This document shows, piece after piece, positions 7,964-60,563 of a stretch of DNA of 64,000 nucleotides (positions are counted from its first letter, which is position 1; each line of letters starts with the position of its first letter). Source of the stretch: an uncultured Gemmatimonadales bacterium (lineage in GTDB: Bacteria; Gemmatimonadota; Gemmatimonadetes; Gemmatimonadales; GWC2-71-9); assembly GCA_963709905.1 (NCBI GenBank), contig CAVPYI010000018.1, positions 350,214 to 414,213 of the forward strand, written 5' to 3'. The translations under genes were made by a program, and so were the position numbers. Below the pieces are notes generated by a model. It saw only the letters and a list, made by a program, of their open reading frames with translations, ran no database searches and had not been told where the DNA came from.

Positions 7964-8078
7964 GGCGGCTCGGCGGCTCGGCCCGAAGGTCCGCGACACC
8001 GCACAATTCCACGCTAGCCCCTGGACTCGTACTGTGCCTTATGACTGCCGAGCCGCCGAGCCGCCGAGCCGCCGAGCC
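7964..8078. repeat. inverted octamer-repeat pair (GGCGGCTC x2.5 at 7964-7983; GCCGAGCC x4 at 8047-8078) between sdhC-like gene and sdhA
   Basis: Direct reading; spacer ~63 nt. The pair fills most of the 127-nt intra-operon gap. Confidence 0.85.
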
Positions 8079-8086
8079 AACGTCTC

Positions 8087-9439
8087 ATGACTGACTACCA
8101 GACCTTCGAACACGACGTGCTGGTGATCGGCGCCGGCGGCGCGGGGCTCCGGGCCGCCATCGCCGCGGCGGCTGCCGGCGCGTCGGTGGGTCTGGTCTGC
8201 AAGTCGCTGCTTGGCAAGGCCCACACGGTCATGGCGGAAGGCGGGATCGCGGCGGCGCTGGCCAACGTGGACAACCGGGACGGCTGGGAGGTGCATTTCG
8301 CCGACACCATGCGGGGTGGCCAGTACCTCAACAACTCGCGCATGGCCGAGCTGCACGCGAAGGAGGCGCCGGACCGGGTGCGGGAGCTGGAGGCGTGGGG
8401 GGCGCTGTTCGACCGCACCCCCGACGGACGGATCCTCCAGCGCAACTTCGGCGGCCACAAGTACCCGCGGCTGGCGCACGTCGGCGACCGGACCGGGCTG
8501 GAGATGATCCGCACGCTGCAGGACCACAGCATCCACCAGGGCATCGACGTGCACATGGAGTGCACGATCACGCGGCTGCTTACCGCCAGCGGCCGGATCA
8601 CCGGGGCGTTCGGCTACGACCGCGAGCGGGGCCGGTTCCAGCTCTACCGCTGCCGGGCGATCGTGCTTGCGACCGGCGGGATCGGCCGGGCCTATTCGAT
8701 CACCAGCAACAGCTGGGAGTACACCGGCGACGGCCAGGCCCTGGCCTACCATGCCGGCGCCGCCCTGCAGGACATGGAGTTCGTGCAGTTCCATCCCACC
8801 GGGATGGTCTGGCCGCCGAGCGTGCGCGGCATCCTGGTCACCGAAGGGGTGCGCGGCGAGGGCGGAGTGCTGCGCAACAAGGACGGGCGGCGCTTCATGT
8901 TCGACGACATCCCGGAGAACTACCGGGCGCAGACCGCCGACAACGAAGATGAGGGCTGGCGCTACACCCAGGGCGACAAGAACGCCCGGCGGCCGCCCGA
9001 GCTGCTGACCCGTGACCACGTGGCCCGCTGCATCATGCGGGAGGTGCGGGAGGGCCGCGGGAGTCCACACGGCGGCGTGTTTCTCGACATTTCGTGGATC
9101 AAGGAACGACTGCCCGGTGCCCGGCAGCACATCATGAAGAAGTTGCCGAGCATGTACCATCAGTTCAAGGAACTGGCGGACATCGACATCACCGCCGAAC
9201 CGATGGAGGTCGGACCGACGACTCATTACATGATGGGCGGGATCCGGGTGGACGGCGACAGCCAGATGTCCACGGTCCCGGGCCTGTTCGCCGCCGGCGA
9301 ATGCGCCGCCGGCCTGCACGGCGCCAACCGGCTGGGCGGCAATTCGCTGTCGGACCTGCTGGTATTCGGCAAGCGGGCCGGGGAGTACGCGGCCGAGTTT
9401 GCCCGGAAGCAGCGGCGCGGCCACCATCGACAGCGCTGA
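8087..9439 (+). CDS. sdhA: succinate dehydrogenase/fumarate reductase flavoprotein subunit, N-terminal 450 aa (frame-shifted gene, part 1)
   Basis: FAD fold DVLVIGAGGAGLRAAIAAA, HTVMAEGGIAAAL, HPTGMVWP, and GGNSLSDLLVFGKRAG near the end. The frame then runs into ..KQRRGHHRQR-stop. Confidence 0.9.
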   Translation: MTDYQTFEHDVLVIGAGGAGLRAAIAAAAAGASVGLVCKSLLGKAHTVMAEGGIAAALANVDNRDGWEVHFADTMRGGQYLNNSRMAELHAKEAPDRVRELEAWGALFDRTPDGRILQRNFGGHKYPRLAHVGDRTGLEMIRTLQDHSIHQGIDVHMECTITRLLTASGRITGAFGYDRERGRFQLYRCRAIVLATGGIGRAYSITSNSWEYTGDGQALAYHAGAALQDMEFVQFHPTGMVWPPSVRGILVTEGVRGEGGVLRNKDGRRFMFDDIPENYRAQTADNEDEGWRYTQGDKNARRPPELLTRDHVARCIMREVREGRGSPHGGVFLDISWIKERLPGARQHIMKKLPSMYHQFKELADIDITAEPMEVGPTTHYMMGGIRVDGDSQMSTVPGLFAAGECAAGLHGANRLGGNSLSDLLVFGKRAGEYAAEFARKQRRGHHRQR

Positions 9440-9908
9440 AGTCGAAGAGGCGGCGCGGCAGGCCCTGGCCCCGTTCGAGCGGGGAGCGGCGTCGAACGGG
9501 AGCGGGCCCTACCAGGTGCAGCAGGAGCTGCAGGGGATGATGCAGGAGCTGGTCGGCATCGTGCGCAAGGGCCCCGAGATGGAGCGCAGCCTCGAGGGCA
9601 TCGAGAAGCTCAAGCGCCTGGCCGGAAAGGTCGCCGTGACCGGTAACCGCGAGTACAATCCCGGCTGGCACACCGCGCTCGACCTGCCCAACCTGCTCGC
9701 CGTGTCCGAGGCAATCGCCCGGGCGGCGATCGAGCGGAAGGAGAGCCGGGGCGGGCACTTCCGGGAAGACTACCCCGAGAAGGACCCGACGTACGCCAGG
9801 TTCAACATCGTAATAATGAAAGGGACGGACGGGACGATGCGGCTCAGCCGCGAGCCGATCTCGCCGTTGCCGCCGGAACTGGCCCGAGTGATCGAGGAGC
9901 AGAAGTGA
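9399..9908 (+). CDS. sdhA: succinate dehydrogenase/fumarate reductase flavoprotein subunit, C-terminal domain (frame-shifted gene, part 2)
   Basis: ..TIDSAEVEEAARQALAPFER..LQGMMQELVGIVRK..NPGWHTALDLPNLLAVSEAIARAAIERKESRGGHFREDYPEKD is the SdhA/FrdA C-terminal domain, read in the +1 frame relative to 8087-9439. Confidence 0.85.
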   Translation: MPGSSGAATIDSAEVEEAARQALAPFERGAASNGSGPYQVQQELQGMMQELVGIVRKGPEMERSLEGIEKLKRLAGKVAVTGNREYNPGWHTALDLPNLLAVSEAIARAAIERKESRGGHFREDYPEKDPTYARFNIVIMKGTDGTMRLSREPISPLPPELARVIEEQK

Positions 9909-10681
9909 CAATGGCGACAGAACCGGCGACCGGCACAAAAGCCACCTTCCGCGTCTGGCGCGGTGACGCCCAGGGCGGCCGACTGGTCGATTACACCACA
10001 CCGGTGGCCGCCGGCATGGTGGTGCTCGACGCGATCCATCAGATCCAGGCCGAACAGGCGAACGACCTCGCCGTACGCTGGAACTGCAAGGCCGGGAAGT
10101 GCGGCTCATGCTCGGCAGAGGTGAACGGCAGCCCGAGGCTCATGTGCATGACGCGACTGAACGACCTGCCGCTCGACCAGCCGGTCACCGTGGAACCGAT
10201 GCGTGCCTTTCCGCCGGTCAAGGATCTGGTGACCGACGTGTCGTGGAATTTCCGGGTCAAGAAACAGATAAAGCCGTTCACGCCCCGCCCGCCCGACGCC
10301 GCCGACGGCACCTGGCGGATGGACCAGGCCGACGTCGACCGGGTGCAGGAGTTCCGCAAGTGCATCGAGTGCTTCCTGTGCCAGGACGTATGCCACGTGC
10401 TCCGGGACCATCACCTGCACGAGGAGTTCATCGGGCCCAGGTTCCTGGTTCATGTCGCCGCCCTCGAGATGCACCCGCTGGACACCGCGGACCGGGTGGA
10501 GGAGCTTCAGCGGGCCCACGGCATCGGGTACTGCAACATTACCAAATGCTGTACCCGGGTCTGCCCCGAGCACATTACTATTACGGACAACGCCATCATC
10601 CCGCTCAAGGAACGGGTGGTGGACGAGTTCTACGATCCGTTGGGGAAACTATTCAGGATCTTCAGCCGACGCGGCGATTGA
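9905..10681 (+). CDS. sdhB: succinate dehydrogenase/fumarate reductase iron-sulfur subunit
   Basis: 258 aa with a 4-nt overlap onto the sdhA stop. Cys clusters CKAGKCGSCSAEVNG..LMC, CIECFLCQDVC and CNITKCCTRVCP. Confidence 0.92.
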   Translation: MTMATEPATGTKATFRVWRGDAQGGRLVDYTTPVAAGMVVLDAIHQIQAEQANDLAVRWNCKAGKCGSCSAEVNGSPRLMCMTRLNDLPLDQPVTVEPMRAFPPVKDLVTDVSWNFRVKKQIKPFTPRPPDAADGTWRMDQADVDRVQEFRKCIECFLCQDVCHVLRDHHLHEEFIGPRFLVHVAALEMHPLDTADRVEELQRAHGIGYCNITKCCTRVCPEHITITDNAIIPLKERVVDEFYDPLGKLFRIFSRRGD

Positions 10682-10696
10682 GGGAGGGGGATCTGC

Positions 10697-10851
10697 GGAT
10701 TGAGGGATTGAGGGATTGAGGGATTGGGGGATTGAGAGATTGACGATTGGCCTCGGTCGACTTCCCAACTCTATCGTGAGCGAACCTCAATCCCTCAATC
10801 CCCCAATCCCCCAATCCCTCAATCCCTCAATCTCTCAATCCCCCAATCCTC
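10697..10851. repeat. inverted octamer-repeat pair (GGATTGAG x~6.7 at 10697-10750; CCTCAATC/CCCCAATC x8 at 10785-10851)
   Basis: Direct reading; 34-nt spacer. Lies immediately after the sdhB stop. Confidence 0.9.
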
Positions 10852-10865
10852 ACCGGGGTGTCCTC

Positions 10866-11366
10866 ATGTTCCAGCCCAAGCCGATCTCGAAGAAAGGCGT
10901 CCCGCTCGCGCTGCAGAAGGCGGAGCGCTACCGGGTGATCAACGACCCATGGTCCGCCGAGAGCATCTGCCTCGACATCCTGGGGGTGGAACCCGATAAT
11001 CAGCAGGCCCTGGTCACTCTCCTCCTCGCGATCACCGATCAGTTTCCCCTGGAGCACACCGAAGGGGTGCGGGAGGCGAAAGAGCTGCTTCCGAAGCTGG
11101 AGGACTCATACAAGCAGGCGTACTACGCCGGCATCATCGCCGAACGCTGGGCCAAGGCCCAGATGCGCCGGGGCGGGATGGCCTCGGGGGAAATGGCCTA
11201 CCATTCGTTCCGTGAAGCGATGGACTGGTACGACAAGGCGGAGGCACAGCGTCCGGCAGGGAACGACGAAGCGATCCTGCGCTGGAACGCCTGCGCCCGG
11301 ATCCTGGCCCAGAACGCGCACCTGAGCCCGCGGGCGGCCGAGTCGGTGGAGTTGGGGCTGGAGTAG
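10866..11366 (+). CDS. hypothetical helical protein
   Basis: ATG 10866 inside ORF 10716-11366; the upstream codons are translated octamer repeat. MFQPKPISKKGVPLALQKAERYRVINDPWSAESICLDILG.. has non-repetitive, balanced composition. Confidence 0.5.
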   Translation: MFQPKPISKKGVPLALQKAERYRVINDPWSAESICLDILGVEPDNQQALVTLLLAITDQFPLEHTEGVREAKELLPKLEDSYKQAYYAGIIAERWAKAQMRRGGMASGEMAYHSFREAMDWYDKAEAQRPAGNDEAILRWNACARILAQNAHLSPRAAESVELGLE

Positions 11367-11431
11367 GCGGCTCGGCGGCTCGGCGGCTCGGCGGCTCGGC
11401 GGCTCGGCGGCTCGGCGGCTCGGCGGCTCGG
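11367..11431. repeat. solitary octamer array (GGCGGCTC x8)
   Basis: Direct reading. Starts at the stop codon of 10866-11366. I saw no complementary arm within ~250 nt. Confidence 0.9.
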
Positions 11432-11656
11432 GAGGTTTGGCGGACTTGATCGGTTCGTCAATCCGGGAGCCGGGAGGCGCCAGAGCGCGCTGGGGTACAC
11501 GCGACGGTTCAGGGGCGCACCACTCGGCGGCGGCGCCGCGGCACGACTCGAGCCCATTACTCCGAGCACCCGTTCCTGTATCACCTTGCGCATCGAACGG
11601 GAGGCCGCATCTTATCTCCCGTCCTAGATCCATACCCCCTCGACCGTGGAGCCCCA

Positions 11657-11917
11657 ATGGACCTCACGACCATTCTCATTCAGGTGATCTCCGGCGCGGT
11701 CGGCGGGAATCTCGGTGGCCTGCTCAACAAGGCGAAGAGCCTCGGCCCCCTGCTCAACACCGTCCTGGGCGCGGTGGGCGGAGTTGGTGGAGGTCAGCTG
11801 CTGGGCGGCTCGCTGTCGGGGATGCTCGGCAATGCCACCGCCGGCCAGGCGACCAGCTCGGCGCTGGTCGGACTGGTGGTCCCGTTGCTGGCGGGGATGC
11901 TCAAGAAGAAGGCGTAA
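11657..11917 (+). CDS. small Gly-rich membrane-associated protein
   Basis: 86-aa ORF with GGAG ~9 nt upstream. MDLTTILIQVISGAVGGNLGGLL...VGLVVPLLAGMLKKKA. Confidence 0.4.
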   Translation: MDLTTILIQVISGAVGGNLGGLLNKAKSLGPLLNTVLGAVGGVGGGQLLGGSLSGMLGNATAGQATSSALVGLVVPLLAGMLKKKA

Positions 11918-11924
11918 ACCGACC

Positions 11925-12404
11925 GTGCGCATCGGGCTGGTTTTCTCCGGCCTGCTGGCCGGGCTCGCCTGCGGCGGGGACTCCGGTGGAGGCCCTTCCA
12001 ACCCGAGCCCGGTCGCCGCGACGCTCGAGGTCTGGAGTTGCCTCCCCGGCTCCTGTCAGACCAGAACGCCGATCGACACCGTCAGCCGCGGTGATTCAGT
12101 CCTGGTGGTATTCGTGGCAGTGGATTCCACCCGGACGACGGACTCCATTGATGTGCGCCCCGCCTGCGCGCTCAACGCGGTGTTCACCCTTGGGGCGGCC
12201 ACCGGGCTGACGGTGCCCGCCAATCCAACCTGCCCGGACTCTATCGAACGGGTCGAACTACAGGTCTTGCCTACCTATCACCTCCACGAGGTCCGTCGGC
12301 TGGTGCACATCCCCGGCGGGCTGGCCACCGGATCGTACCGGGTGCGGTCCCGGTTTTTCATCTCACCGCCTCTGGCGCCAGCGTATGTACTCGAGATCGA
12401 GTGA
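11925..12404 (+). CDS. probable lipoprotein
   Basis: In-frame GTG 11925 inside ORF 11715-12404 gives VRIGLVFSGLLAGLACGGDSGGG (signal + Cys). The upstream codons overlap the preceding gene. Confidence 0.45.
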   Translation: MRIGLVFSGLLAGLACGGDSGGGPSNPSPVAATLEVWSCLPGSCQTRTPIDTVSRGDSVLVVFVAVDSTRTTDSIDVRPACALNAVFTLGAATGLTVPANPTCPDSIERVELQVLPTYHLHEVRRLVHIPGGLATGSYRVRSRFFISPPLAPAYVLEIE

Positions 12405-12412
12405 TTGGCGAG

Positions 12413-12572
12413 GAGGCGTCAAGGCGTCAGGCGTTAAGGCGTTAAGGCGTTAAGGCTTCAGGCGACGGGTAACAGGCCTGCCATCAACTGTCGCGACTTG
12501 ATTTCTGGATCCCTGACGCCTGACGCCTGACGCCTCAACGCCTGACGCCTCGACGCCTCGACGCCTTCCGCC
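12413..12572. repeat. inverted 7/8-mer repeat pair (GGCGTCA/GGCGTTAA x~6 at 12413-12466; CTGACGC/CTCGACGC x~8 at 12512-12572)
   Basis: Direct reading; 45-nt spacer. Lies between the lipoprotein gene and pirin. Confidence 0.9.
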
Positions 12573-12609
12573 TTGTATATTCCCGACCGAGCACCGATCT
12601 GAGGAGCCG

Positions 12610-13521: not shown

Positions 13522-13533
13522 GCGGGACTCGCC

Positions 13534-13953: not shown

Positions 13954-13982
13954 GATAGGCCTCCACCAATACCGCGAAAACT

Positions 13983-14090
13983 GCGCATCGCGCCCCTTAG
14001 CGTCCTTCGCGCCTCGCGCCTTCGCGCCTTCGCGGTCCACAGCAGGACCGGCGATCCACTGAGTATCACCGCCAAGGCGCGAGGAACGCC
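13983..14090. repeat. octamer array (GCGCCTTC-type x~6, 13983-14034) with short complementary partner (AAGGCGCGAGG.., 14074-14090)
   Basis: Direct reading. The partner arm is short, so pairing is weaker than at other loci. Confidence 0.6.
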
Positions 14091-14136
14091 AGGCTGTACG
14101 GCGTCACTTGCCATACCCAGTGCGCGGTGCGCGGCT

Positions 14137-15737: not shown

Positions 15738-16502
15738 TCAGCGTCCGGCAACCGGGACCGTGGGCAGGGCCAGGTAGACCGGCGCGTGCCCCGGGCTCCG
15801 CTCGTGCCCTATCAGGAATCGATGGACCACCACATCGTCCGCGAGGAAGAGCCGGACCGGTGTCACGCCCGCCGGCAGGGCGAAGCGAAGGGTGGTGAGA
15901 TACGACTCCCCTGGCTTCAGCGGCTGATCCAGCCGCGTCGACTTCATATCCCCGTCCGTCCAGTCCGTCTTGTCCGCCCTGCTTGCCCCGAGCGCCAGCG
16001 AGGGGTCCGCCCTCTCCGCCCTCTCCTCCCCGTCCGCCACCTCGTACCGCCGCCCATCCGATCCCACCAACTCGACCCGTCGAGGCAACGGCAGGAGCGT
16101 GGCGTCGCGCGGCCGGCGACTCGAGATCGTGGTCTCGTCGAACCGGGTGCGAATAGTCACGACCCAGTCTGATGACCCATCGCCTGGTCTCCCCGTCGCC
16201 CCGTCGCCGAGGGAGTGGGGACCTCGGACCCCGGTGACGACGTAGGCAAGGTGGCAGTCGAGTTCACAGAAGTACTTCTCGCTGCCGGCCGGCAGCACCC
16301 GCTCCTTGCTGGCAAGCCCGACGCCGACCAGAACCAGGGCATAGACCCCCGCCAGACCGCCGCCCAGGAGGGCGACGGCACGCGCCCGGTCACGCCGGCC
16401 GCGGAATCCCAACCACAGGGCGGCGGCGGCGGCCAGCGCAATGAGGCCGACGGTACCAAGAAAGGCCAGGATGGCGATGAGCATCGAGAGCGTGCTGGTC
16501 AT
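15738..16502 (-). CDS. membrane-anchored hypothetical protein
   Basis: ATG 16502 inside ORF 15738-16793, overlapping the upstream stop as ATGA. Two N-terminal helices (MLIAILAFLGTVGLIALAAAAALWL; LLGGGLAGVYALVLVGVGL) precede a soluble domain. Confidence 0.45.
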   Translation of the reverse strand: MTSTLSMLIAILAFLGTVGLIALAAAAALWLGFRGRRDRARAVALLGGGLAGVYALVLVGVGLASKERVLPAGSEKYFCELDCHLAYVVTGVRGPHSLGDGATGRPGDGSSDWVVTIRTRFDETTISSRRPRDATLLPLPRRVELVGSDGRRYEVADGEERAERADPSLALGASRADKTDWTDGDMKSTRLDQPLKPGESYLTTLRFALPAGVTPVRLFLADDVVVHRFLIGHERSPGHAPVYLALPTVPVAGR

Positions 16503-18037
16503 GGAGACGCTTCGTCGTGGAGGGTGAGGATGGCGCGACGGGCCCGCTCCCGGCCGTAGTGCCAGTCGCGAAGGTCGGTGGAATAGATGTCCGAGCGTTT
16601 CATGAGACCATCCCGCACAATGGCGCGTTCCGGGTCGGCAAGCGACGGCAGAGCCGCGACCAGGGCCGGGACGGCATCGGTGCCGAGTCGGGCAAGATGG
16701 GAGGCGTCGAGGCTCTTGCCCACGGCGTGACGCCGGAGATTCGTGGTCACTATCAGGCGGTCGGGATTGGCGAGGTTCAAGAGCGCGAGCCAAACCCCCC
16801 AGGCGACGAGCGCCCCGCGCGCAAACAGCAACGCCCTCCCCTGCAACACGGTGGCGATGAACCAGGCACAGGTGACGGCCGCGCCGGCCATGAACGCGGA
16901 GGCGAACAGCCGGTCCTGCGTCAGCCCGAACTCACCCTGGTACAGCGCCATCCGGTGCATCCCGGACCCGATGATGGCGAGCAGCAGAGCGACCTGGATC
17001 CCGGCCAGCCAGCGGTAGCACCGGCGCGCCCGGGGATCGTCCGGCGTCAGCCGGGTGTTGAGCAGGAGCAGCAACGGCAGTACCAGCGCGGTCACCACCA
17101 CCAGCTCGAAGAAACCCCTTCGGGCGTACTCGGCGAGCGTGACACCCATGGTCCGCTGCACCCAGTCCGTCCCGCCGAAGAAGTAGGGAACCTGCCAGGC
17201 GATGAAGCCGGCAAAGAGGAGATCGACCACCCCCAGCGTCAGGCCAATCTCGATCGCGCCCAGGCCCCGGCTGGGCGGCCGCGAAGTTCCAGAGAGGTAA
17301 TCAACGGCCGCGGGCAGCAATCCGCGCAGGATGGCCGCCGCGATCCAGGCCGCCAGGGTCACGCCCAGTACGTGGCCGATCAGAACCTCGGGATCCACGG
17401 CGACGATTCGGCGCATGGCGTCGCCGAACACCGGGTCGGCCGAACCCAGCAGGGTGCCGAAGACCGCGCCGGTGGGCACGGCGATCATGAGCCCACGCGC
17501 CAAGGCACCGAGCGGAAGCGTCCGCCTCGCCTTGGAGTCGCGCGATTCGCGCTCCGCCTCGAGCACGGTCGGCAACAGGCCCGAGACCCCCCGACCGGCC
17601 AGACCAGCCAGTGCCCTGAGCAGCTGGGCCACGGTCAGCCGCCCCAAGGCCGTGCGGCAATCGGCCACGCGAGCCAAAGGCAGGAGCGCGAAGACCAGGA
17701 TCAGCGCGAGGGCATCGAGGAACCGGAGCATGGCGTTGTCCCGCCATACCCACGCGGCGGCGAGGGCCAGGGCGCACACCAGCAGTCCGCGCTCCCATGA
17801 GCGGCTCGGCGGCTCGGCGGCTCGGCCGCTCGGCGCAGGGCATGAATCGACCACCGACCCGCCAGCCGCCGAGCCGCCGAGTCGCCGAGTCGCCGAGTGC
17901 CAAACCAGAACCGCTCCCCCGGTCCAGACCAGGACGTTCAGGCCGAGATGATTGGCCCGGAACAGCAAATCACCCGCGACACCGAGGGCCAGGATCGGCC
18001 AGAGCAGTCCTCCGGCCGAAGCTTTCGGACCGGTCAT
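16499..18037 (-). CDS. polytopic membrane protein (DUF4153/DUF4173-like) carrying an in-frame octamer-repeat insertion
   Basis: ATG 18037 inside ORF 16499-18487, overlapping the uppS stop as ATGA. About 10 hydrophobic helices, with N-terminus [28 protein letters not shown] typical of the family (recalled). Confidence 0.55.
17800..17897. repeat. inverted octamer-repeat pair (GCGGCTCG-type at 17800-17835; GCCGAG(C/T)C-type at 17865-17897) inside CDS 16499-18037
   Basis: Direct reading. Translated in-frame on the minus strand as ..[33 protein letters not shown].. Confidence 0.85.
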
Positions 18038-18767: not shown

Positions 18768-18846
18768 AAGGCGTTGGGCGTTGAGGCGTCAGGCGTCAGA
18801 CCTTGATCCGAGGCTGCCGCCGCAACGCCTGACGCCTCAACGCCTG
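18768..18846. repeat. inverted 7/8-mer repeat pair (GGCGTTG/GGCGTCA x4 at 18768-18799; CAACGCC/TGACGCC x3 at 18823-18846) between the wHTH regulator gene and uppS
   Basis: Direct reading. The right arm contains the regulator stop codon. Same unit family as 12413-12572. Confidence 0.85.
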
Positions 18847-19848: not shown

Positions 19849-19903
19849 GGAGCCAAGGTAGGGAGTAGGCTGAGTTTCGTCAAGTGCTTTGTACCACAAA
19901 GTC

Positions 19904-20109
19904 GGCGGCTCGGCGGCTCGGCGGCTCGGCGGCTCGGCGGCTCGGCGGCTCGGCGGCTCGGCGGCTCGGCGGCTCGGCGGCTCGGCGGCTCGGCGGCTCG
20001 GCGGCTCGGCGGCTCGGCGAAGGATGCCGAACTAGCTGGTTCGCGCAATGGTCCGTTCCGAGGAGGGACTCGCCCTAGTCTATTCACGAGCCGCCGAGCC
20101 GCCGAGCCG
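19904..20109. repeat. GGCGGCTC x~14 (19904-20018) plus complementary GAGCCGCC x~2.7 (20088-20109) at the 3' end of the giant surface-protein gene
   Basis: Direct reading; this is the longest array in the window. It generates the spurious (GGSAARRL)n / (PSRRAAEP)n ORFs. Confidence 0.9.
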
Positions 20110-27486: not shown

Positions 27487-27504
27487 GGGAGGGGAAGTTA
27501 GCAG

Positions 27505-27650
27505 GCTGTCGGCTATGCACTGTCGGCTGTCAGCTATCAGCTATCAGCTATCAGCTCTTGGGGGATCCCAACGTGCGCGTCGTGAATATGCCTGAAGGCT
27601 GAGATCTGACAACGGATCGCCCACAGCCGTCAGCGGACAGCCGACAGCCG
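27505..27650. repeat. inverted heptamer-repeat pair (GCTGTCG/GCTGTCA/GCTATCA x~7 at 27505-27556; complementary CTGACAA..GCCGTCAGCGGACAGCCGACAGCCG at 27606-27650) between response regulator and kinase genes
   Basis: Direct reading. There is a 12-nt perfect match (CTGTCGGCTGTC) between one arm and the reverse complement of the other. Confidence 0.8.
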
Positions 27651-29020: not shown

Positions 29021-29048
29021 CCGTCGGCCGTCAGCCGTCAGCCGTCAG
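29021..29048. repeat. heptamer array CCGTCGG/CCGTCAG x4 (left arm flanking the four-helix-bundle gene)
   Basis: Direct reading. Begins 4 nt after the start codon (minus strand) of the response-regulator gene. Confidence 0.85.
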
Positions 29049-29141
29049 ACCGTGATGCAACGAATTGCGCTGAGGTGCGGGATTCTGATCACTCATCTCC
29101 TGAGCGAGACAGCTTGAGGCACCCACGCGACGGGGACGATC

Positions 29142-29501
29142 GTGCAGAATTTCAGGAAGCTCAAGGTATGGCAGAAGGCACATGGTCTGGTGCTGGAAAT
29201 CTACCGGGTGACAGGACCGTTCCCCGCCCGGGAGCGGTTCGGTTTGACCGATCAACTCCGTCGTGCTGCGATATCCGTTGCGGCCAACGTCGTTGAAGGT
29301 ACCGCCGAGGCGACCGACCGCGAAGCGGTCAGGTTCCTCCGAATCTCGCTGGCGTCGGCTGCCGAGGTTGAGTACCACCTGATGCTCAGTCATGATCTCG
29401 GGCTCCTGCCGGCCGGCCCGCACGCGGAACTTGAGCGACGAACCATCGAAATCAAGCGCATGCTCAGTGGCTTCATCCGCCATCTGTCGGCTGAAGGCTG
29501 A
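29142..29501 (+). CDS. four-helix-bundle protein (TIGR02436 / 23S rRNA intervening-sequence protein family, PF05635)
   Basis: 119 aa, GTG start. FRKLKVWQKAHGLVLEIYRVT..FPARERFGLTDQLRRAAISVAANVVEG..RFLRISLASAAEVEYHL is the family signature. It is the only + strand gene in a 39-kb minus-strand run, and its last codons lie in a heptamer-repeat arm. Confidence 0.85.
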   Translation: MQNFRKLKVWQKAHGLVLEIYRVTGPFPARERFGLTDQLRRAAISVAANVVEGTAEATDREAVRFLRISLASAAEVEYHLMLSHDLGLLPAGPHAELERRTIEIKRMLSGFIRHLSAEG

Positions 29502-29514
29502 TGGCTGACGGCTC
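29484..29514. repeat. heptamer array CTGTCGG-CTGAAGG-CTGATGG-CTGACGG (right arm, imperfect reverse complement of 29021-29048)
   Basis: Direct reading. Encodes the last 6 codons of the four-helix-bundle gene and abuts the stop of permease paralog 1. Confidence 0.85.
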
Positions 29515-44926: not shown

Positions 44927-45009
44927 CACCGGGCCGCCACCGGAAGACCGCTGGCCGGCCCGGTTCTCTGCCGGGCCGTCCAGCCGCCGAGCCGCCGAGT
45001 TCGCTGCCA

Positions 45010-47480: not shown

Positions 47481-47695
47481 GTCGGCAGTCGGCTGTGAGC
47501 GACCAGCTATGAGCTATGAGCTATGAGCTATGAGCCATCAGCTATCAGCTATCAGTTATCAGTCATCAGTCATCAGATATCAGGTATCGCTGATCAGCCG
47601 TCGGCAGCGGTCAACTCATAGCTCATAGCTCATGGCTCAAGGCTCACGGCTCGTGGCTCACGGCTCATGGCTCACGGCTCACGGCTCCCAGCTCA
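47481..47695. repeat. composite heptamer-repeat locus: (CTATGAG)x4, (C/T)(T/C)ATCAG x~9, central palindromic TGATCA region, then (CTCATAG/CTCACGG/CTCATGG)x~12
   Basis: Direct reading. Occupies nearly all of the 257-nt gap between permease paralogs 7 and 8. Confidence 0.9.
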
Positions 47696-47705
47696 TCGCC
47701 CGCAC

Positions 47706-50958: not shown

Positions 50959-51054
50959 CTAATGGCTAATGGCTAATGGCGATTTGCCATTGGCCGTTGG
51001 CCGTTGGCCGTTCTTCGATGCTGGGCCCTGGGCCCTGGGCCCTGGGCCCTGGGC
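50959..51054. repeat. heptamer hairpin (CTAATGG x3 / loop / GCCATTG-GCCGTTG x3, 50959-51013) followed by quasi-palindromic (CTGGGCC)x5 (51021-51054)
   Basis: Direct reading, in the adaptor|ATPase gap. On the + strand the first element folds as a ~22-bp stem with 5 G-T(U) pairs and no mismatches. Confidence 0.85.
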
Positions 51055-53057: not shown

Positions 53058-53195
53058 TCACCTGGTGAGAAGAGGCAAAACCCGGCGAAAGTCGGGTGAC
53101 GCAAAGCCACGGGTCCTCGCCTCCTCCGCGACGCCTGACGCCGACGCCACGAAGGTCCCGCACGATCGCCGGGCTGCCAACAGGTAGCTCGGCGT
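53058..53195 (+). ncRNA. c-di-GMP-I (GEMM-I)-like riboswitch aptamer; boundaries approximate
   Basis: 53074-53108 reads GGCAAAACCCGGCGAAAGTCGGGTGACGCAAAGCC. That is GGCAAA, a 7-bp stem ACCCGGC/GTCGGGT capped by a GAAA tetraloop, then GACGCAAAGCC, matching the hallmark 5' half of Vc2-type GEMM-I. A 3' AGGTAGC element lies at 53182-53188. Confidence 0.7.
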
Positions 53196-53500
53196 TCGTG
53201 TTGCTGGCGGGGTGGCCAATTCACCCGCAGCACTCAAGCCTCCGTGCTGGCAAACGCGGGAGGTGTCGATGTGCAATCGGCCTGCCGCTTCCGGGCATCT
53301 CCGCTGGCGCCGCAGTCCGGGTGATTCACCTCGTTACCCTGGCGTCGCTGGTGGCATGCGGCGAGAGCTCCGCCCCCAAGCGACTGTGCCTTCGCTTGAG
53401 ACACTACTCGGTGAGCCGGAGCTACACCATCCCCCTGTACCGGCCTGCAGGCTTATCGTTCGACCAGCGCCTCGTCACCCCATAACAACGGGAGGAGGCC

Positions 53501-55183
53501 ATGCGGCCCGATCGCGTTTTCTCCTCGCGCTCCATTCTCCTCATCACCTTCCATCGTTGCTGGCGCCTGGTGCTCGGCGGCCTATTTCTGTACCTCTTCG
53601 CCGCGGCCTGCGGCGGGGGCGATGCCGCGCTCGGCCCGACCAGCTACAACCTCTCCGGCCTGTGGTACTTCGAAGAGACCTTCGCCGACAATGCCGTAGG
53701 GCTCACCTGCAGCGATACAGGAAGGCTGGTCGTAACTCAGAGCGGCCCGACGTTCAGTGCCGCCGGGTTCCAGGAGGGCATGTGCAGCGGGCCCGGGGGG
53801 ACGGTACCGGTTGCGGACAGCTTCCGTATGGTGAACGGTCGGATTGACGGTGCTCGAATCTCCTTCCGCGTTGATCCCTGTCCGTACTCCGGAACGGCCA
53901 TCGGTGCCGCTCCCGACAGCGTCGCCGGAAGCATCGATTGCCGAGTGAGCATCGAGGACGTGAGCCTCCACCTCCAGGGGACGTGGCGGATGCGGCGCCC
54001 ACTGCCACCGCCACCACCACCGATCATCGCGTTGCTCGACCTGAGCCCGCTGGATCTCACAACGGGAAACTTTCAGAGCCCGGGTGTGGCCTTCAATGAC
54101 CAGGGAATGATCCTCGTCGTCTACGACAAAGATCGAGCACTGATCTCCAAGTTCTCCGATGGGAGCACGACGCCGCCCGCCTGGCAGACGCCCGGCATAG
54201 GAGCCGCGAACTACTGGCCAGCCGCACCCGATCACCAGCTGGTAATGAATGCATCGGGTGCCGCGGGACTGGTCTACAAGGTCAGCTCGGATCAGCTGAA
54301 TGAGGACCGGAACCGGTTCGGATTCGCCTATTTCGACGGCGCCGCGTGGCGCTACAATCAAACGCTCGAGGGCGCGATACAGCACCCCTTTTCCGTTGGC
54401 GACATTCGCACGCCCATCGTCGGCATCGACAACAATGGAACGGCGTATGTCGCGTTCAAGAAGGTGGCAAACGGTGCCCCAATCGATGTGCTGGTCCTCG
54501 CCCGGTTCACGGTGGCAGGGTTGCTGGACACGACCGAGTTTTCGGAACCGGTGGGGAATCTGTATCTGTCCGTGAGCGCCAGCGGTCAGGTCATGGTGCT
54601 CAACACCGGCGCCGGATCCAGGACCTTCGATGGCACATCGTGGAGCCCGCTGAAACCCGTGACGGTGCCGGGCGAGGGGCCCGCATTCCTGGCCCTCTCG
54701 AGTTCAGGCAGCGCGGAGGTGGTTACCCTCTACAACGCGATCACGCATTACCACTATGACGGGGCATCCTGGGGACCGGGCGTGCGAATCAACGGCAGCT
54801 TCAGTGCGGGCAACGGAGCCGCCGCAGTCGACGGTGCCGGAAACATCATGGTGGCCTACATGGGACCATCCGGCGGCCCGGAATACCATATTCAGGCCAA
54901 TCTCTACGATGGTACGTCGTGGGGTCCTCCAAAAGACGTCGACAATACGGCTGAGTATGAAGCGAACCCCGCGCTGCTGGTCGATGGCATCGGGAACTTC
55001 GTGGCGCTGTACGGTAGCTACGCAAACTATTTTGCTGGTGCGTCCTGGCACACGCCGACTGTCCTTGAAGGGCAACCCGGCGTCCTGTATCCCGCCGTCG
55101 CCATGAAGGACGATGGGGATTTTGTGGTTATCTCCCCTGCGGGAGGTGGCTTGTACAGCTTTCTCTACACGTTTTCCCCCTGA
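53501..55183 (+). CDS. secreted/lipoprotein of unknown function (560 aa)
   Basis: GGGAGGAGG lies 2 nt before the ATG (GGAGG core 5-6 nt upstream). Leader LVLGGLFLYLFAAACGGG, a poly-Pro linker (RRPLPPPPPPII), then a beta-rich domain with recurring DG.SW/GASW motifs. Confidence 0.6.
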   Translation: MRPDRVFSSRSILLITFHRCWRLVLGGLFLYLFAAACGGGDAALGPTSYNLSGLWYFEETFADNAVGLTCSDTGRLVVTQSGPTFSAAGFQEGMCSGPGGTVPVADSFRMVNGRIDGARISFRVDPCPYSGTAIGAAPDSVAGSIDCRVSIEDVSLHLQGTWRMRRPLPPPPPPIIALLDLSPLDLTTGNFQSPGVAFNDQGMILVVYDKDRALISKFSDGSTTPPAWQTPGIGAANYWPAAPDHQLVMNASGAAGLVYKVSSDQLNEDRNRFGFAYFDGAAWRYNQTLEGAIQHPFSVGDIRTPIVGIDNNGTAYVAFKKVANGAPIDVLVLARFTVAGLLDTTEFSEPVGNLYLSVSASGQVMVLNTGAGSRTFDGTSWSPLKPVTVPGEGPAFLALSSSGSAEVVTLYNAITHYHYDGASWGPGVRINGSFSAGNGAAAVDGAGNIMVAYMGPSGGPEYHIQANLYDGTSWGPPKDVDNTAEYEANPALLVDGIGNFVALYGSYANYFAGASWHTPTVLEGQPGVLYPAVAMKDDGDFVVISPAGGGLYSFLYTFSP

Positions 55184-56793: not shown

Positions 56794-59180
56794 CCCGGGT
56801 TTCGTGGTGTCTGGTGGCGGTCCTCGGAACCGGGTTTGCCGGCGGCGCCACGGCTCAGTCGAGCGGCGCCGTCGAAGGCGTGGTTCGTCAGGCGGGGACC
56901 GAGCCCGTGCGGCTGAGCGGGGCGCTGGTGACGGTGGACGGCGGCCGATTCGTGACCAGCACCGACGAGCGCGGCTTCTACCGGGTGCGCGAACTGTCTC
57001 CCGGCTGGCACGTGGTGACCGCCGCGGCGATCGGCTACCGCCCGCAGAGCCGCGACAGCGTTCTGGTCCGGGCCGGCCAGACCACCGCGCTCGACTTCGC
57101 CCTGCAGCCTGACCCGGTAGGGCTCGAGCCGATCGAGGTCATAGCGGCCCGGGTGGACTCCGTCCTCGACCCGCTCGCGGTCACCGACCAGCAGCGCTAC
57201 ACCACTGAGGACCTCCGCCGCCTGCCGGTGTCGACGGTCGAGGAGGCGATCGGGCTTTCCTCCGGTGCCGTGGGAGAGAGCTACCGCGGCGGGCGGCTGG
57301 GTCAGCAGGCGTTCATTCTGGACGGCCTGGGGGTCAAGAATCAGCTCGATGCGTCGAGCGGGTCCCTCGGCGTTCGCGTCCCACCCGATATCCTGGCCGA
57401 GGCATCGCTGATCACCAATGGCTTCTCTGCCCGTTACGGGCAGGCGGTCTCAGCGCTGGTGAATCTTTCCACCCGGGATGGAGGCGATCGCTGGGGTGGC
57501 CGGCTCGCCTACGAGACCGACCGCCCCCTCGGCGGCGGCGCCGATCACGGTCTTGATCGCGCGGTCGTGGGATTCGAAGGCCCGCTCTTCGGCGGGATCA
57601 GCCTCATCGGAGTTGCCGACCTCTCGGCCCGGCTGAATGCCGACGCGGTCAACGCCCCGGCACCGTCGAACCCCCGCGATCCGCGGCACGCCGCCCCCTG
57701 GATCCTGCCGCACAACAGCGCCGAGCAGGCCGACCTCGCCGCCAAGCTCACCATCCCGCTCGGAGCGCGGCAGACGCTGCGTCTCCTTGGCCTGCACTCC
57801 ACCGAGCAGCGGCTGCTGTTCGACCCGGCGTTCAAGTACGATCCCGGGTTCGGTCCGGTCCGCCGGACCACCGGCAAGCTGCTCAACGCGCACCTGCAGC
57901 GGACCTTCCCGGGGCCCGGAATCACCGCAGACCTCAGGATCGGGTATTTCGGACGCGAGTTCATCCGCGGCCCGTCGGCCGAGTCCATCGATTACCGGTT
58001 CGGCGCGTTCACCGGGCAACACCTCGGCATTCTGGCCGAACAAATCGCCCGCGATCAGGATACCGCGCGGGCCCGAAACCCGCTCCCTGGCTACGCCCCG
58101 CCGGGGTTGAGCTCCAACACCCCGTGGGGTGTCCCGGCGTTCTTCCTCGGGGGCGCGTCGCGCGGCGACCTGGCCTGGAACCGGTTCCGCGAGGTCCGCT
58201 CTCGCCTCGACCTCGGCTTTCCGGCGGGGCGGAGCGGCGACTTCTACATCGGCGCCGAGTATTCGGGCCAGCGGGTGCAGACCTTTCAGCGGATTCGCTC
58301 CTACCTGCCCGCCGGCGACTCGGTCCCCCCACCCAGCGCCTCGGATTTCACGCCCTGGGCCGGGGCGCTCTACGCCGAGATGCAGCAGCGGGCAACCGAC
58401 CTGGCCATCACCCTCGGGCTGCGATACGACCAGTTCAGCGGTCGGGACGATCTGCCCGGGCAGGCGGCCCGCACCAGCCGCTCGCTTTCGCCCCGGTTCG
58501 CCGTGAGCACGGTGCTCAAAGGCGCCACGATGGTCGCCAGCTTCGGGAAATTCAGTCAGGCGCCGGATTATCAGTATCTCGCTGATGCCGCATTCGACGA
58601 TACCACCCGCACCGGCCGGTTCCGGCAGGGCAATCCCGACCTCGGGTTTGAGCGGTCCACCCAGTACGAACTCAGCCTCCGGGTGCGGCCGACGGCACAG
58701 ACCAGCCTGCGGGCCAATCTCTACGTCCGCCGCCTCGACGGCCTGGTGGCGTCGGTGCCGCTGGGCGTCAACCCCGACTCGAGCATCTTCGGCAACACCG
58801 ACGCCGGCTCGGTCAAGGGCTTCGAAGTCATTCTCGAGCGGGAGTTCACCCGGGGGTGGGGGGCACGGCTGAGCTACGCGCTCCAGCAAGCCACGGCCCA
58901 TTCATCGGATGCCTACTTCATCCGGCGGGTCATCCGCATCGACCCGGTCACCGGCGATACCATCTTCCCCGGGAAAGTGGAGTTTCCACTGGACTTCGAC
59001 CGCCGGCACTCGCTGATCGCCATCGTGACCGGCTCGGTGCCGGCCGGATTCGGGCCTTCCCTGCTCGGAACGAGACCGCTGGCGGGCATCGACGGCACGG
59101 CGATCCTCCGGGTCAAGTTCGGGCCTGCCGTTCTCGCGAGTCGATGCGGCCGCCGATTCCATTCTCGGATTGCCCAATGA
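56790..59180 (+). CDS. TonB-dependent receptor with N-terminal carboxypeptidase-regulatory-like domain (frame-shifted gene, main part)
   Basis: ORF-track start is 56775. GTG 56790 overlaps the upstream stop and gives signal VTRVSWCLVAVLGTGFAGGATAQS. CarbopepD_reg-like VEGVVR..GALVTVDG..TDERGFYRVRELSPGWHVV is followed by plug motifs (DLRRLPVSTVEEAIGLSSGA) and a beta-barrel. The frame is lost near 59105. Confidence 0.85.
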   Translation: MTRVSWCLVAVLGTGFAGGATAQSSGAVEGVVRQAGTEPVRLSGALVTVDGGRFVTSTDERGFYRVRELSPGWHVVTAAAIGYRPQSRDSVLVRAGQTTALDFALQPDPVGLEPIEVIAARVDSVLDPLAVTDQQRYTTEDLRRLPVSTVEEAIGLSSGAVGESYRGGRLGQQAFILDGLGVKNQLDASSGSLGVRVPPDILAEASLITNGFSARYGQAVSALVNLSTRDGGDRWGGRLAYETDRPLGGGADHGLDRAVVGFEGPLFGGISLIGVADLSARLNADAVNAPAPSNPRDPRHAAPWILPHNSAEQADLAAKLTIPLGARQTLRLLGLHSTEQRLLFDPAFKYDPGFGPVRRTTGKLLNAHLQRTFPGPGITADLRIGYFGREFIRGPSAESIDYRFGAFTGQHLGILAEQIARDQDTARARNPLPGYAPPGLSSNTPWGVPAFFLGGASRGDLAWNRFREVRSRLDLGFPAGRSGDFYIGAEYSGQRVQTFQRIRSYLPAGDSVPPPSASDFTPWAGALYAEMQQRATDLAITLGLRYDQFSGRDDLPGQAARTSRSLSPRFAVSTVLKGATMVASFGKFSQAPDYQYLADAAFDDTTRTGRFRQGNPDLGFERSTQYELSLRVRPTAQTSLRANLYVRRLDGLVASVPLGVNPDSSIFGNTDAGSVKGFEVILEREFTRGWGARLSYALQQATAHSSDAYFIRRVIRIDPVTGDTIFPGKVEFPLDFDRRHSLIAIVTGSVPAGFGPSLLGTRPLAGIDGTAILRVKFGPAVLASRCGRRFHSRIAQ

Positions 59181-59233
59181 ATCGCGACTGCCGTCGAGCT
59201 ATACGCTGGATCTGCTGATCCGCCGTCCGCTGA

Positions 59234-59569
59234 AGGTCGGCACAATGGGGAGGCAGCCTGTACGTCGATGTGCGCAACGTGCTCAACCGTCGCAACGTCA
59301 TCGCGGTGCGCCGGGATACCGGCACCGAGACCCTGCCCCCCACGACGATCCAGCAACTGGCCACCGCCGCGTACGCGGCTGATCCAGCGCCGATCCCGTA
59401 CGAGTCTCCGCGCTATCGCGCCTGGGCGGACCAGGATGCCAATGGGGTACTGGAGGGACCGGGTGAACTGATGCCGCTCTTCCTGGCCGCGGCACGGGAC
59501 TTCGCCCAGCCGATCTTCTTCTACGGGCCACCGCGACTGTTCCGGCTGGGGGTCGAGTTCGAGTTCTAG
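59234..59569 (+). CDS. C-terminal barrel strands of the TonB-dependent receptor (third reading frame; ORF-track piece 59270-59569)
   Basis: ..GGSLYVDVRNVLNRRNVIAVRRDTG...PRLFRLGVEFEF-stop is a canonical TBDR C-terminus ending in Phe. The middle piece (LPFSRVDAAADSILGLPNESRLPSSYTLDLLIRRPLKVG) lies in a second frame at ~59110-59250. Confidence 0.75.
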   Translation, partial: RSAQWGGSLYVDVRNVLNRRNVIAVRRDTGTETLPPTTIQQLATAAYAADPAPIPYESPRYRAWADQDANGVLEGPGELMPLFLAAARDFAQPIFFYGPPRLFRLGVEFEF

Positions 59570-59686
59570 GGGATCGAATCCAGAATTCCCATCGCTGCGC
59601 GAGGGCTTCGGGATGAGGAGTGGCGGCATCCATGCCCAGGCATGTATGCCGCCCTTTACGTTTCCCTCCCCGATCCATCTCACCCA

Positions 59687-60097
59687 TCATGCGGCCGGCG
59701 CCAATGGATCCCCCGCCGGCGGCGGTTCCTCCCGGGTCGGCGACGGGAGGTTCCTGGCGCTTTCCCAGGCCGCCAGCCGCTCCGCATCATCCCGGAATCG
59801 ATAGCGGTTGAGGCCGTCGAGCAGATCCACCATCCGCATGTTGTCGCGGGTGACGGCGTCCAGGTCGGCGGTGGCGCCGACATGCGCACCACGACCGCTG
59901 TTGACCCGATCGGACGCGGCGTCGTACTGATCGAGCGTCGACACCAGATCGGTGAGCATGGCCTCCGACAAGCCGTGGCGGAGGAACAGCTCCTTCCGAG
60001 CCAGGGCCTGATCGGCGATGGCGCGGGCGGCCGTGCGCCAGACGGTCCCCCGGGCGTTGAAGCGCGGGAGGTTGGGGCAGGGCACCGTGACGAGCAT
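59687..60097 (-). CDS. hypothetical protein
   Basis: ATG 60097 inside ORF 59687-60316. ..FNARGTVWRTAARAIADQALARKELFLRHGLSEAMLTDLVSTLDQYDAASDRV.. is helical and non-repetitive. No family recognised. Confidence 0.35.
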   Translation of the reverse strand: MLVTVPCPNLPRFNARGTVWRTAARAIADQALARKELFLRHGLSEAMLTDLVSTLDQYDAASDRVNSGRGAHVGATADLDAVTRDNMRMVDLLDGLNRYRFRDDAERLAAWESARNLPSPTREEPPPAGDPLAPAA

Positions 60098-60385
60098 GAA
60101 CGACGGACCGCGAGCCCCCCAACCACTTCGCGGCCGGGGGGAGGGCAGAGCATCAGGCATGCCAGAGCTCACGGGTGAGTTGTGAGGCAGGTCGGACTGC
60201 TCGTTGGCAGACGGTGGGCCATGGATGGTGATGCTGGCGCAAGTCAGGGGTGGGCAAGCAGCTAGGTGCCCATTGACCGGGGGACGTGCGGACTGGTGGA
60301 CGGCCGGCGGGGACACGACAGAGTGGTATCGTCGCCGATGGGTCGCGGTCTGGCGGAGTGTCTACTCCGGGAGACGGGGACAGTG

Positions 60386-60563
60386 GCGGAGGACGGAAAG
60401 ACGGAAAGACGGAAGGACGGAAGGCGGAAGGACGGAAGGAAGATTACAGTGCGTCAGCAGTTTTGCTGCATTGCCGAGCGCGACCGCCGGGCGGTCGGGC
60501 CGTCCGCCTCCCATGACCGTCTGACCGTCTGACCTTCCGTCCTTCCGTCCTTCCGTCCTTCCG
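60386..60563. repeat. inverted octamer-repeat pair (GACGGAA(A/G) x~6.5 at 60386-60440; GACCGTCT x2 + CTTCCGTC x4 at 60515-60563)
   Basis: Direct reading. Each arm is followed in direct orientation by AGATTACAG(T/C)GCG (60441-60453 and 60569-60581). Confidence 0.85.

Follow-up and report, generated by a model that had tools for sequence, protein, structure and literature searches.

Paired inverted arrays of short tandem repeats in operons of an uncultured Gemmatimonadales bacterium and their association with PF05635 four-helix bundle genes

A stretch of 64,000 nucleotides from an uncultured Gemmatimonadales bacterium (contig CAVPYI010000018.1 of assembly GCA_963709905.1; hereafter the window) carries, between its genes and once inside a gene, arrays of tandemly repeated units of 7 or 8 nt that are arranged in pairs as inverted arms. 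On balance, these loci seem to be copies of one kind of palindromic short-tandem-repeat element, with the architecture of the intervening sequence of 23S rRNA that bears the S23p open reading frame (ORF). One of them encloses a gene of the PF05635 four-helix bundle (4HB) family, and PF05635 genes are associated with inverted heptamer arrays across phyla. The window has a G+C content of about 68%, and the nearest proteins to its UppS and SdhB are found in Gemmatimonadales metagenome-assembled genomes.

Arrays of period 7 or 8 were found in the window with Tandem Repeats Finder at every locus listed in a preliminary description of this DNA. An inverted-repeat search showed each locus to consist of two reverse-complementary arrays, with 76-100% matches (89% for 10689-10743 and 10795-10849, 94% for 60394-60424 and 60533-60563, and 100% for the arm that starts at 19906 and its partner at 20087-20109). 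Moreover, all pairs fold as long arm-to-arm hairpins on both strands, with z of about -3 to -13 against dinucleotide shuffles, so that the inverted-arm, hairpin-capable architecture proposed in that description is confirmed. The pair claimed at 13983-14090 survives in part: the array is present and its pairing is weak. For a pairing test, 26 arrays were coded by unit family and orientation, and two arrays were counted as a pair when they were of the same family, convergent and at most 500 nt apart. There are 11 convergent same-family pairs, against 0.2 expected from random placement and orientation (20,000 trials, maximum 4), and three arrays in the window are solitary (Table 1). The control density of period-7/8 arrays, taken over 834 kb of unrelated loci, is 2.9 per 100 kb. 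Comparable arrays occur at matching gene junctions in independent assemblies, which indicates that they are not assembly artefacts.

About six unit families are present in the window, with both periods and with uneven copy numbers (2.4-14.8 units). They recur from locus to locus: GGCGGCTC is found at five (7964, 11366, 17800, 19902 and 44970), AGGCGTYA at two (12413 and 18768) and GCYRTCA at three (27504, 29021 and 47485). Four exact units of GGCGGCTC occur in at least 107 stretches in representative genomes, and many Gemmatimonadales genomes have several loci each. The view that each locus has its own unit therefore has to be given up, since a few families recur across loci and genomes. Within the elements the G-rich strand usually comes first, and the loop is short and different at each locus.

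A Pfam search backed the gene labels assigned earlier, namely sdhA and sdhB, a sigma-54 response regulator with a histidine kinase after it, a Big_1 surface protein of 1983 aa, an HTH_34 regulator and then uppS, several successive MacB-type duplicated permeases, and an HlyD-type adaptor followed by an ABC ATPase. With these neighbours, the placement of the elements between co-oriented, co-transcribed genes holds. The pair at 17800-17897 had been taken as intergenic, and in fact lies in frame within a DUF4153 gene: the start of this gene at 18037 overlaps uppS by an ATGA, likewise in relatives, and its 512-aa frame has no stop through the element. Arrays can thus mislead gene callers, as a simple ORF reading splits the DUF4153 gene in two at this position.

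The spacer of about 430 nt that had been reported at 29021-29514 is a gene, which had been overlooked. The product of 29142-29501 matches PF05635 (23S_rRNA_IVP, E 5.6e-34) and TIGR02436 ("four helix bundle protein"), and also the crystallised XCC0516 of Xanthomonas (PDB 2GSC) and, more weakly, phage Avd. The gene is antisense to the surrounding operon, and the right arm of the cassette supplies its last codons and its TGA stop. No other pair in the window encloses a PF05635 gene; the remaining 10 pairs can be placed beside this cassette only as relatives that lack the ORF, because the window holds no further 4HB copy or remnant.

Syntenic contigs from relatives of 84% identity or less were compared with the window around uppS (L132-L135), around the sdh genes (L136-L138) and around the 4HB gene (L326-L331). 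Among homologues of the window 4HB protein, the closest are 61-71% identical to it. The orthologues in L326-L331 (61-69% identical) occupy the same locus, also in antisense, between the start of the response-regulator gene and the stop codon of a gene for a MacB-type permease or an ABC ATPase; they share the arm unit of the window cassette, AGCCGTC / GGCTGAC, and copy numbers vary from 4 to 9 units upstream and from 3.6 to 6 downstream. In these genomes the neighbouring regulator is 78-92% identical, as opposed to 61-68% for the 4HB protein. The dN/dS ratio between the window and L326 is 0.21/1.42, about 0.15, with dS near saturation. The gene-bearing cassette is vertically inherited, and its 4HB protein is under purifying selection. 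At two loci of other Gemmatimonadales genomes (L251 and L323) a 4HB gene is enclosed by GGCGGCTC-type arms; the two proteins share 46% identity, and neither is closer to the other than to the window protein, whose arms differ, and hence there is no simple rule that links protein to unit. A code between protein and unit was considered at 31 loci, where similar proteins tended to have similar units (r = -0.31, p < 2e-4), and was dropped since the correlation is confounded by ancestry and G+C content. Contigs with close 4HB homologues mostly measure only about 1 kb, which could be caused by the arrays, as these may break short-read assemblies.

The cassette resembles the intervening sequences found in the 23S rRNA genes of Coxiella burnetii and Leptospira, which are regarded as selfish elements (PMC4990558). 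The Coxiella intervening sequence contains the S23p ORF and, at its 5' end, three to four tandem units of GACAGAT, in a number that differs from strain to strain, and it forms a 28-bp stem that RNase III cleaves at the first repeat (PMC4990558). As at 29021-29514, a PF05635 ORF lies there between terminal inverted repeats, and the stem is made of tandem heptamers in variable copy number; a stem of some 25 bp or more around the insert characterises such cassettes, and the window pairs all fold with long stems between their arms. However, those sequences are located in helix 45 (or 25) of 23S rRNA and are removed by RNase III, whereas the window elements are located in mRNA operons and in one coding sequence, are mostly ORF-less and comprise several unit families per genome; an Rfam search found no rRNA in the window. 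With somewhat more confidence than doubt, we read the window loci as intervening-sequence-type elements that reside in mRNA operons and one coding sequence, in several unit families and mostly without an ORF.

If the elements work as the Coxiella sequence does, the arms would pair once the operon is transcribed, as a stem of about 20-60 bp from which the insert is looped out. At the base of this stem the stop codon upstream and the start codon downstream would be reunited, and such looping-out could make the insert tolerable within translationally coupled operons. This would show how a bulky insert might persist in such operons, and even inside a gene. By the same analogy, the stem may be a double-stranded RNA substrate for RNase III. 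Among the roles suggested at the outset, processing of double-stranded RNA is the mechanism best supported, and it stands as an analogy with the heptamer stem that RNase III cuts in Coxiella (PMC4990558).

The association between PF05635 genes and arrays was surveyed in many phyla, at 51 loci homologous to the window protein and at 80 retrieved with XCC0516 as an independent query. An array of period 6 to 9 lies beside the gene at 114 of the 131 loci, and at 80 there is one on both sides; reverse-complement pairs with at most one mismatch per unit number 15 and 38 in the two sets. Period 7 accounts for 163 of 194 arrays (84%), and the arms have a median of 4.3 units, or 30.5 nt, with a sharp mode at 4.0-4.5 units. 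Polarity is consistent and reads the same from either strand: G exceeds C in the upstream arm in 84 cases against 8, and C exceeds G in the downstream arm in 88 against 10. Beside the gene the arrays reach 3.67 per kb, which is 8.5 times the 0.43 per kb of the distal flanks at these loci. According to a crude ORF detection, the stop of the same-strand upstream ORF lies a median of 5 nt before the upstream arm, the downstream start lies a median of 12 nt past the downstream arm (0 nt in 13 cases), and both neighbours are co-oriented with the 4HB gene at 31 of 46 loci. The sample includes loci of Aquimarina and Pirellulales in which TAACTGA-type units flank the 4HB gene, and XCC0516 of Xanthomonas, whose GGGAATC repeats had been published.

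Heptamers of this kind (GGGAATC and GGGGAYT) have been described in Xanthomonas and Nostoc, with about four units preferred and with 70-75 convergent pairs per genome in Xanthomonas; they are mostly located between co-oriented ORFs, at positions conserved between species and in variable copy number (PMC4692102). The terms "S23" and "XCC0516" are absent from the text of that paper, which reads the heptamers as quadruplex-forming. Convergent tandem heptamers between co-oriented ORFs are what the window also has, with the difference that it holds about six unit families instead of one and more variable copy numbers. The idea that the window arrays too are G-quadruplex or i-motif repeats, as proposed for the GGGNATC units of Xanthomonas and Nostoc, is hardly credible. 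It would agree with the preference for four units, with the in vitro folding of GGGAATC and GGGGAYT oligonucleotides into quadruplexes (PMC4692102) and with the GGG runs of the GGATTGAG array. However, 115 of the 194 arrays beside 4HB genes (59%) contain no G3 or C3 run and still keep a median of 4.4 units, which rules out quadruplexes as a general explanation, and the main window units GGCGGCTC, AGGCGTCA, GACGGAAG and GCYRTCA have no G-tract and do not conform to GGGNATC.

At least 8 genera of Xanthomonadales, Xanthomonas among them, have the XCC0516 cassette at one fixed place, between accB and accC. Each of its arms has four GGGAATC-type heptamers, which are the repeats published by Rehm et al. 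2015. The 4HB start codon (GTG or ATG) is inside the upstream arm of these cassettes, and the ATG of accC lies 0-2 nt from the downstream arm at most loci and 9-14 nt away in three genera. The consensus fold has 23 pairs in 6-bp helices, with the seventh nucleotide of each unit unpaired, and four of the pairs persist through changes on both sides. Six positions of the unit are conserved and the seventh is free, and variant units are mirrored in the hairpin register.

These arms bear on another explanation, in which the arrays act on DNA and each arm offers about four sites to a multimeric protein (the pentameric 4HB protein itself, or a nucleoid protein such as IHF/HU, which had been proposed for Geobacter metallireducens), the arms being reverse complementary only because one motif is used in both orientations. 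We regard this as unlikely. The sharp mode of 4.0-4.5 units per arm, reached with or without a G-tract, would suit it, as would the homopentameric ring attributed to XCC0516 (Lin 2006, as cited in PMC4990558), the six conserved positions with a free seventh, the purifying selection on the 4HB protein and the global-regulator reading proposed in PMC2700814; it is also favoured by the 10697 locus of the window, where variant units are not mirrored in the hairpin register. However, variant units are mirrored in Xanthomonadales, where compensatory changes preserve the pairs, and L251 and L323, with the same GGCGGCTC arms, have proteins that are not close to each other. In addition, the helical repeat of DNA is 10.5 bp, and a spacing of 7 nt misfits repeated contacts on one face of the duplex.

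The comparison with relatives, which the preliminary description had called for, revealed differences in both presence and copy number at orthologous gaps. Window elements fill gene junctions that abut or overlap in relatives. At the junction between sdhC and sdhA, L136 and L137 carry a GGCTGCG/CGCGACC pair, whereas in L138 the genes abut and there is no array. Between sdhB and the next gene, the window has a 155-nt pair where L136 has a gap of 5 nt and L138 an overlap, and between response regulator and kinase a 146-nt element where L135 has a gap of 9 nt. Relatives whose junctions are empty have nothing there that corresponds to the window loops (41-67 nt), and no flanking duplications were seen when occupied and empty junctions were compared. 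Inside the DUF4153 gene, L133 and L134 carry a pair of this family that is longer and stands at the matching codon position, L132 a remnant and L135 none. In the gap between the HTH_34 regulator gene and uppS, the window has AGGCGTYR and its complement, L132 has GAGGAGT x9.6 / CCTCACT x4.3, and L133 has GAGAAGT x16.4 / CACTTCT x3.6; both arms change together there, and also between sdhC and sdhA. L136 and L137 are identical across 171 nt apart from an indel of 14 nt, or two units, in one arm. Copy number shifts by slippage, and the slippage-prone nature first suggested for the arrays is borne out by these two near-identical assemblies, which have no other difference. In L135 (GCA_964585655.1; a 20.7-kb locus with 20 kb of synteny), arrays of period 7 or 8 are missing altogether, at every junction that bears them in the window; either this lineage lost all arrays or the other lineages gained them. 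The response regulator of L135 is 87% identical to that of the window despite the absence of the arrays.

Several observations weigh against the interpretation of these loci as copies of one intervening-sequence-type element. Loops show no relationship from one locus to another (all z < 2.6 in pairwise alignments against shuffles), and a conserved loop core was ruled out as no alignment signal exists between loci. A tblastn and a six-frame profile search of the loops found no 4HB remnant, only the intact gene, although the loops are short and could hide remnants. With unrelated loops and no 4HB remnant, the descent of gene-less pairs from gene-bearing cassettes is unsupported; nor were target-site duplications or recently transposed copies seen. 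G-U pairs number 20 on the sense strand and 29 on the antisense strand, and as there is no sense-strand bias they give no specific pointer to selection at the RNA level. Cleavage also raises problems: the copy in the DUF4153 gene must be translated or bypassed, as cleavage would destroy the mRNA, and the cutting of an mRNA, unlike that of an rRNA, separates cistrons. Complementary arms that change together would also be expected from oppositely oriented arrays of one protein-binding motif. Finally, at 11366-11431 the window has eight units in a place where L136 has one GCGGCTC, and some arrays may therefore have grown in place.

Growth in place is central to the explanation of the arrays as a by-product without function, in which native motifs expand by slippage, quasi-palindrome template switching makes the arms complementary and keeps them so, and arrays persist where they do little harm. 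The step from one GCGGCTC to eight argues for it, as do the two-unit indel that alone separates two assemblies, the overlap of the unit GATTGAGG with the native stop-codon context of sdhB, the lack of relation between loops and the uneven copy numbers of the window. However, the same small set of units appears at numerous loci and in numerous genomes, as with the exact four-unit stretches of GGCGGCTC; period 7 and arms of about 4.3 units prevail across phyla; strand polarity is consistent; arrays are concentrated beside one protein family; and the loops lack a counterpart at the empty junctions of relatives. We thus consider a functionless by-product quite improbable.

It had also been proposed that the elements are terminators or attenuators that take the place of U-tract terminators. 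As a general role this is unsupported, and as an explanation of the set it is very improbable. Every pair does form a strong hairpin, and the pair at 19902-20109, the only one in the window that occupies the position of a terminator, is at an operon end, in a place taken in L135 by a GC-rich hairpin with a T-run after it; in both genomes an operator- or promoter-like motif comes next. However, a T-run is absent after the 3' arm at most loci, and most pairs are at junctions that overlap or abut in relatives (sdhC and sdhA, sdhB and the next gene, regulator and kinase), where termination would be harmful. Moreover, one pair is inside a coding sequence, and cassettes usually share the orientation of their neighbours and abut the next start codon. 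The motif itself, a palindromic TTTG-N-ACAAAG followed by ACTTGACGAAA, is conserved between window positions 19860-19903 and positions 8910-8950 of L135, a relative of 74% identity, and is upstream of an operon in which a 205-aa gene is joined by the HTH_34 regulator gene and uppS; we interpret it as a probable operator with a -35 box.

Other families of repeats share some traits with the elements that we read as intervening-sequence-type. Repetitive extragenic palindromic (REP) sequences, bacterial interspersed mosaic elements and MITEs (miniature transposable elements with inverted repeats) occur as scattered palindromes between genes, make hairpins in transcripts, are often located in operons and resemble non-autonomous elements. 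However, a REP is one imperfect palindrome of 20-40 nt and is associated with RAYT transposases, whereas the window arms are tandem 7-8-mers, and MITEs have a conserved core and target-site duplications, whereas the window loops are unrelated and neither duplication nor transposase was seen with them. The palindromic elements of Rickettsia can reportedly lie in frame inside protein-coding genes and be translated, and in this they are like the pair in the DUF4153 gene; they differ in their length of 100-150 nt, in their conserved sequence without short tandem units, and in having no sequence in common with it. A CRISPR array, with direct repeats of 23-50 nt and unique spacers of similar length, was ruled out because the units are contiguous, 7-8 nt long and arranged in inverted arrays. 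The short tandemly repeated repetitive (STRR) units of heterocystous cyanobacteria are CCCCAGT, TTGGTCA and CAACAGT, none of which is among the tandem repeats found in the window with Tandem Repeats Finder.

TAACTGA repeats are known from Beggiatoaceae, cyanobacteria and Bacteroidetes (PMC4679880). Like the window arrays, STRR and TAACTGA repeats are intergenic tandem heptamers that often end a few nucleotides from a start codon, but they are described as direct repeats, mostly unpaired, and are AT-richer (PMC4679880). A closer likeness is offered by the "global regulator binding sites" of Geobacter metallireducens, whose classes 1-3 are pairs of arrays, each of 3-5 tandem units of eight or seven nucleotides, that lie on opposite strands and at distances that vary; a genome has dozens of such pairs, some within operons (proB/proA), and some heptamer elements are within genes (PMC2700814). 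These were read as IHF/HU sites; their unit sequences differ, and no link to 4HB genes was reported (PMC2700814). In a Geobacteraceae metagenome-assembled genome (L089), an array of CCGGTCC x4.1 at 2284-2312 is located about 400 nt from a 4HB cassette; read as its reverse complement, this unit is that of the four-heptamer element GGACCGG, reported in 49 copies in Geobacter metallireducens.

The paired-array architecture itself is thus not new, and the initial opinion that it belongs to no described family has to be withdrawn, as convergent heptamer pairs were described in Xanthomonas (PMC4692102) and paired sites in Geobacter metallireducens (PMC2700814). PF05635 genes have also been noted between cas genes (PMC3936711). 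A literature search, with incomplete coverage of subscription journals, found no link between PF05635 and heptamer arrays beyond Coxiella, and no paper in which GGGAATC and XCC0516 both appear. The general link between PF05635 and the arrays appears to be new, and because of this coverage we do not assert priority.

Heptamer repeats have been reported piecemeal for decades, as quadruplexes, IHF sites, translational regulators and rRNA intervening sequences, and the present data tie them to one very common protein family, numerous in many phyla. We tentatively entertain the possibility that PF05635 4HB proteins and inverted 7-nt arrays of about four units constitute a single bacteria-wide system, in which a pentameric protein acts on the arrays. 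If so, the rRNA intervening sequences, the GGGAATC repeats, the Geobacter sites, TAACTGA and probably STRR might be local names of one thing. The 4HB protein would make, maintain or move the arrays, perhaps with about one unit bound per subunit or together with a polymerase or reverse transcriptase, and gene-less pairs would depend on it in trans. Avd, to which PF05635 is related, is the reverse-transcriptase cofactor of diversity-generating retroelements. The polarity of the arms also brought to mind a telomerase-like origin, with repeats added to 3' ends at breaks; no supporting evidence was found, nor a reverse transcriptase nearby, and we treat this as speculation. Xanthomonas, where accB and accC flank the XCC0516 cassette and about 70 further pairs of its unit carry no gene, could serve as a culturable model.

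Table 1. Positions, composition and surroundings of the repeat elements and associated features of the window
Feature	Position	Strand	Composition	Placement	Folding z
Pair	7964-8078		GGCGGCTC x2.4, 64-nt loop, GCCGAGCC x4	4 nt from stop of sdhC-like gene, 8 nt from sdhA ATG	
Pair	10689-10852		GGATTGAG x5.9, loop of about 41 nt, CCTCAATC x8.1	Between sdhB and a conserved 166-aa gene	-10.9 / -12.8
Solitary array	11366-11431		GGCGGCTC x8.2	Directly 3' of stop codon of the 166-aa gene	
Pair	12407-12572		AGGCGTCA/AGGCGTTA x6.6, 47-nt loop, CCTGACG x7.4	Upstream of pirin gene	-8.7 / -10.9
Doubtful pair	13983-14090		CGCGCCTT x5.5 and short imperfect complement; C-rich arm first		-3.9 / -2.6
Pair	17800-17897	-	GGCGGCTC family, 4.4 / 5.6 units, 18-nt loop	In frame in DUF4153 gene (16499-18037, -), between predicted membrane segments	
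Pair	18768-18846		AGGCGTTG/AGGCGTC, 14-nt loop, CAACGCC/TGACGCC	Between HTH_34 regulator gene and uppS	
Pair	19902-20109		GGCGGCTC x14.8, 67-nt loop, CGAGCCGC x2.9	2 nt past stop of 1983-aa Big_1 surface-protein gene	
Pair	27504-27650		GCTGTCA/GCTATCA, 62-nt loop, complementary arm	9 nt from stop of sigma-54 response-regulator gene, 17 nt from kinase ATG	
Left cassette arm	29021-29053		CCGTCAG x4.6	3 nt from response-regulator start codon (opposite strand)	
4HB gene	29142-29501	+	119 aa; PF05635, TIGR02436		
Right cassette arm	29489-29513		GGCTGAA/GGCTGAT/GGCTGAC x3.6	Abuts stop codon of MacB-type permease gene (opposite strand)	
Solitary array, short, degenerate	44970-44999		GCCGAGCC x3.8, 77% matches	Between two permease genes	
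Pair	47485-47696		AGCTATG/AGCTATC x13.6, 16-nt loop, CTCATAG/CTCACGG x10.4	Between two MacB-type permease genes	-10.2 / -6.8
Pair	50959-51012		CTAATGG x3.1, 6-nt loop, GCCGTTG x3.9	Between HlyD-type adaptor and ABC ATPase genes	
Solitary array	51021-51054		CTGGGCC x4.9, partly self-complementary	1 nt from stop codon of adaptor gene	
c-di-GMP-I riboswitch aptamer	53064-53181	+	47.8 bits (gathering score 35); spans 53130-53148		
Pair	60386-60563		GACGGAAG x6.5, loop of about 73 nt, TGACCGTC x2.6 then CCTTCCGT x3.9		-6.8 / -8.2

The sequence at 53130-53148, which had been counted as a further solitary array, is part of the c-di-GMP-I riboswitch. No Rfam match at or above the gathering score was found at the arrays, and only ALIL and c-di-GMP-I have matches in the window; PADLOC gave no match to defence systems. 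Downstream of the aptamer there is a 560-aa ORF (53501-55183) with no Pfam match. The pair at 50959-51012 needs plus-strand G-U pairs to pair fully (-37.1 vs -18.8 kcal/mol), and this better-pairing plus strand is antisense to the flanking genes. On the minus strand, 29515-50156 holds eight successive MacB_PCD/FtsX duplicated-permease ORFs of about 800 aa each, of which four were checked with Pfam, followed by the ABC ATPase gene and then the HlyD adaptor gene; only some junctions within this run have array elements. The sdhA gene (8087-9908, +) appears split into overlapping frames, 8087-9439 and 9399-9908, where relatives have one protein of 594-606 aa; a frameshift near 9400-9440 is possible, as is a sequencing error there.

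At the other end of the window, an IS3-type transposase with an rve integrase core and HTH_21 is encoded at 61641-63546 (-), and it contains an ALIL frameshifting pseudoknot at 62489-62606 (-) with 100.6 bits. A tRNA-Gly(GCC) was located at 61733-61811 (-), with coordinates that overlap the end of the long ORF called in the IS3 region. Directly 3' of the array pair at 60386-60563 is an ORF (60594-61247, +) without a Pfam match, which contains tandem repeats of 63 nt and 21 nt in up to 3.9 copies (60703-61131).

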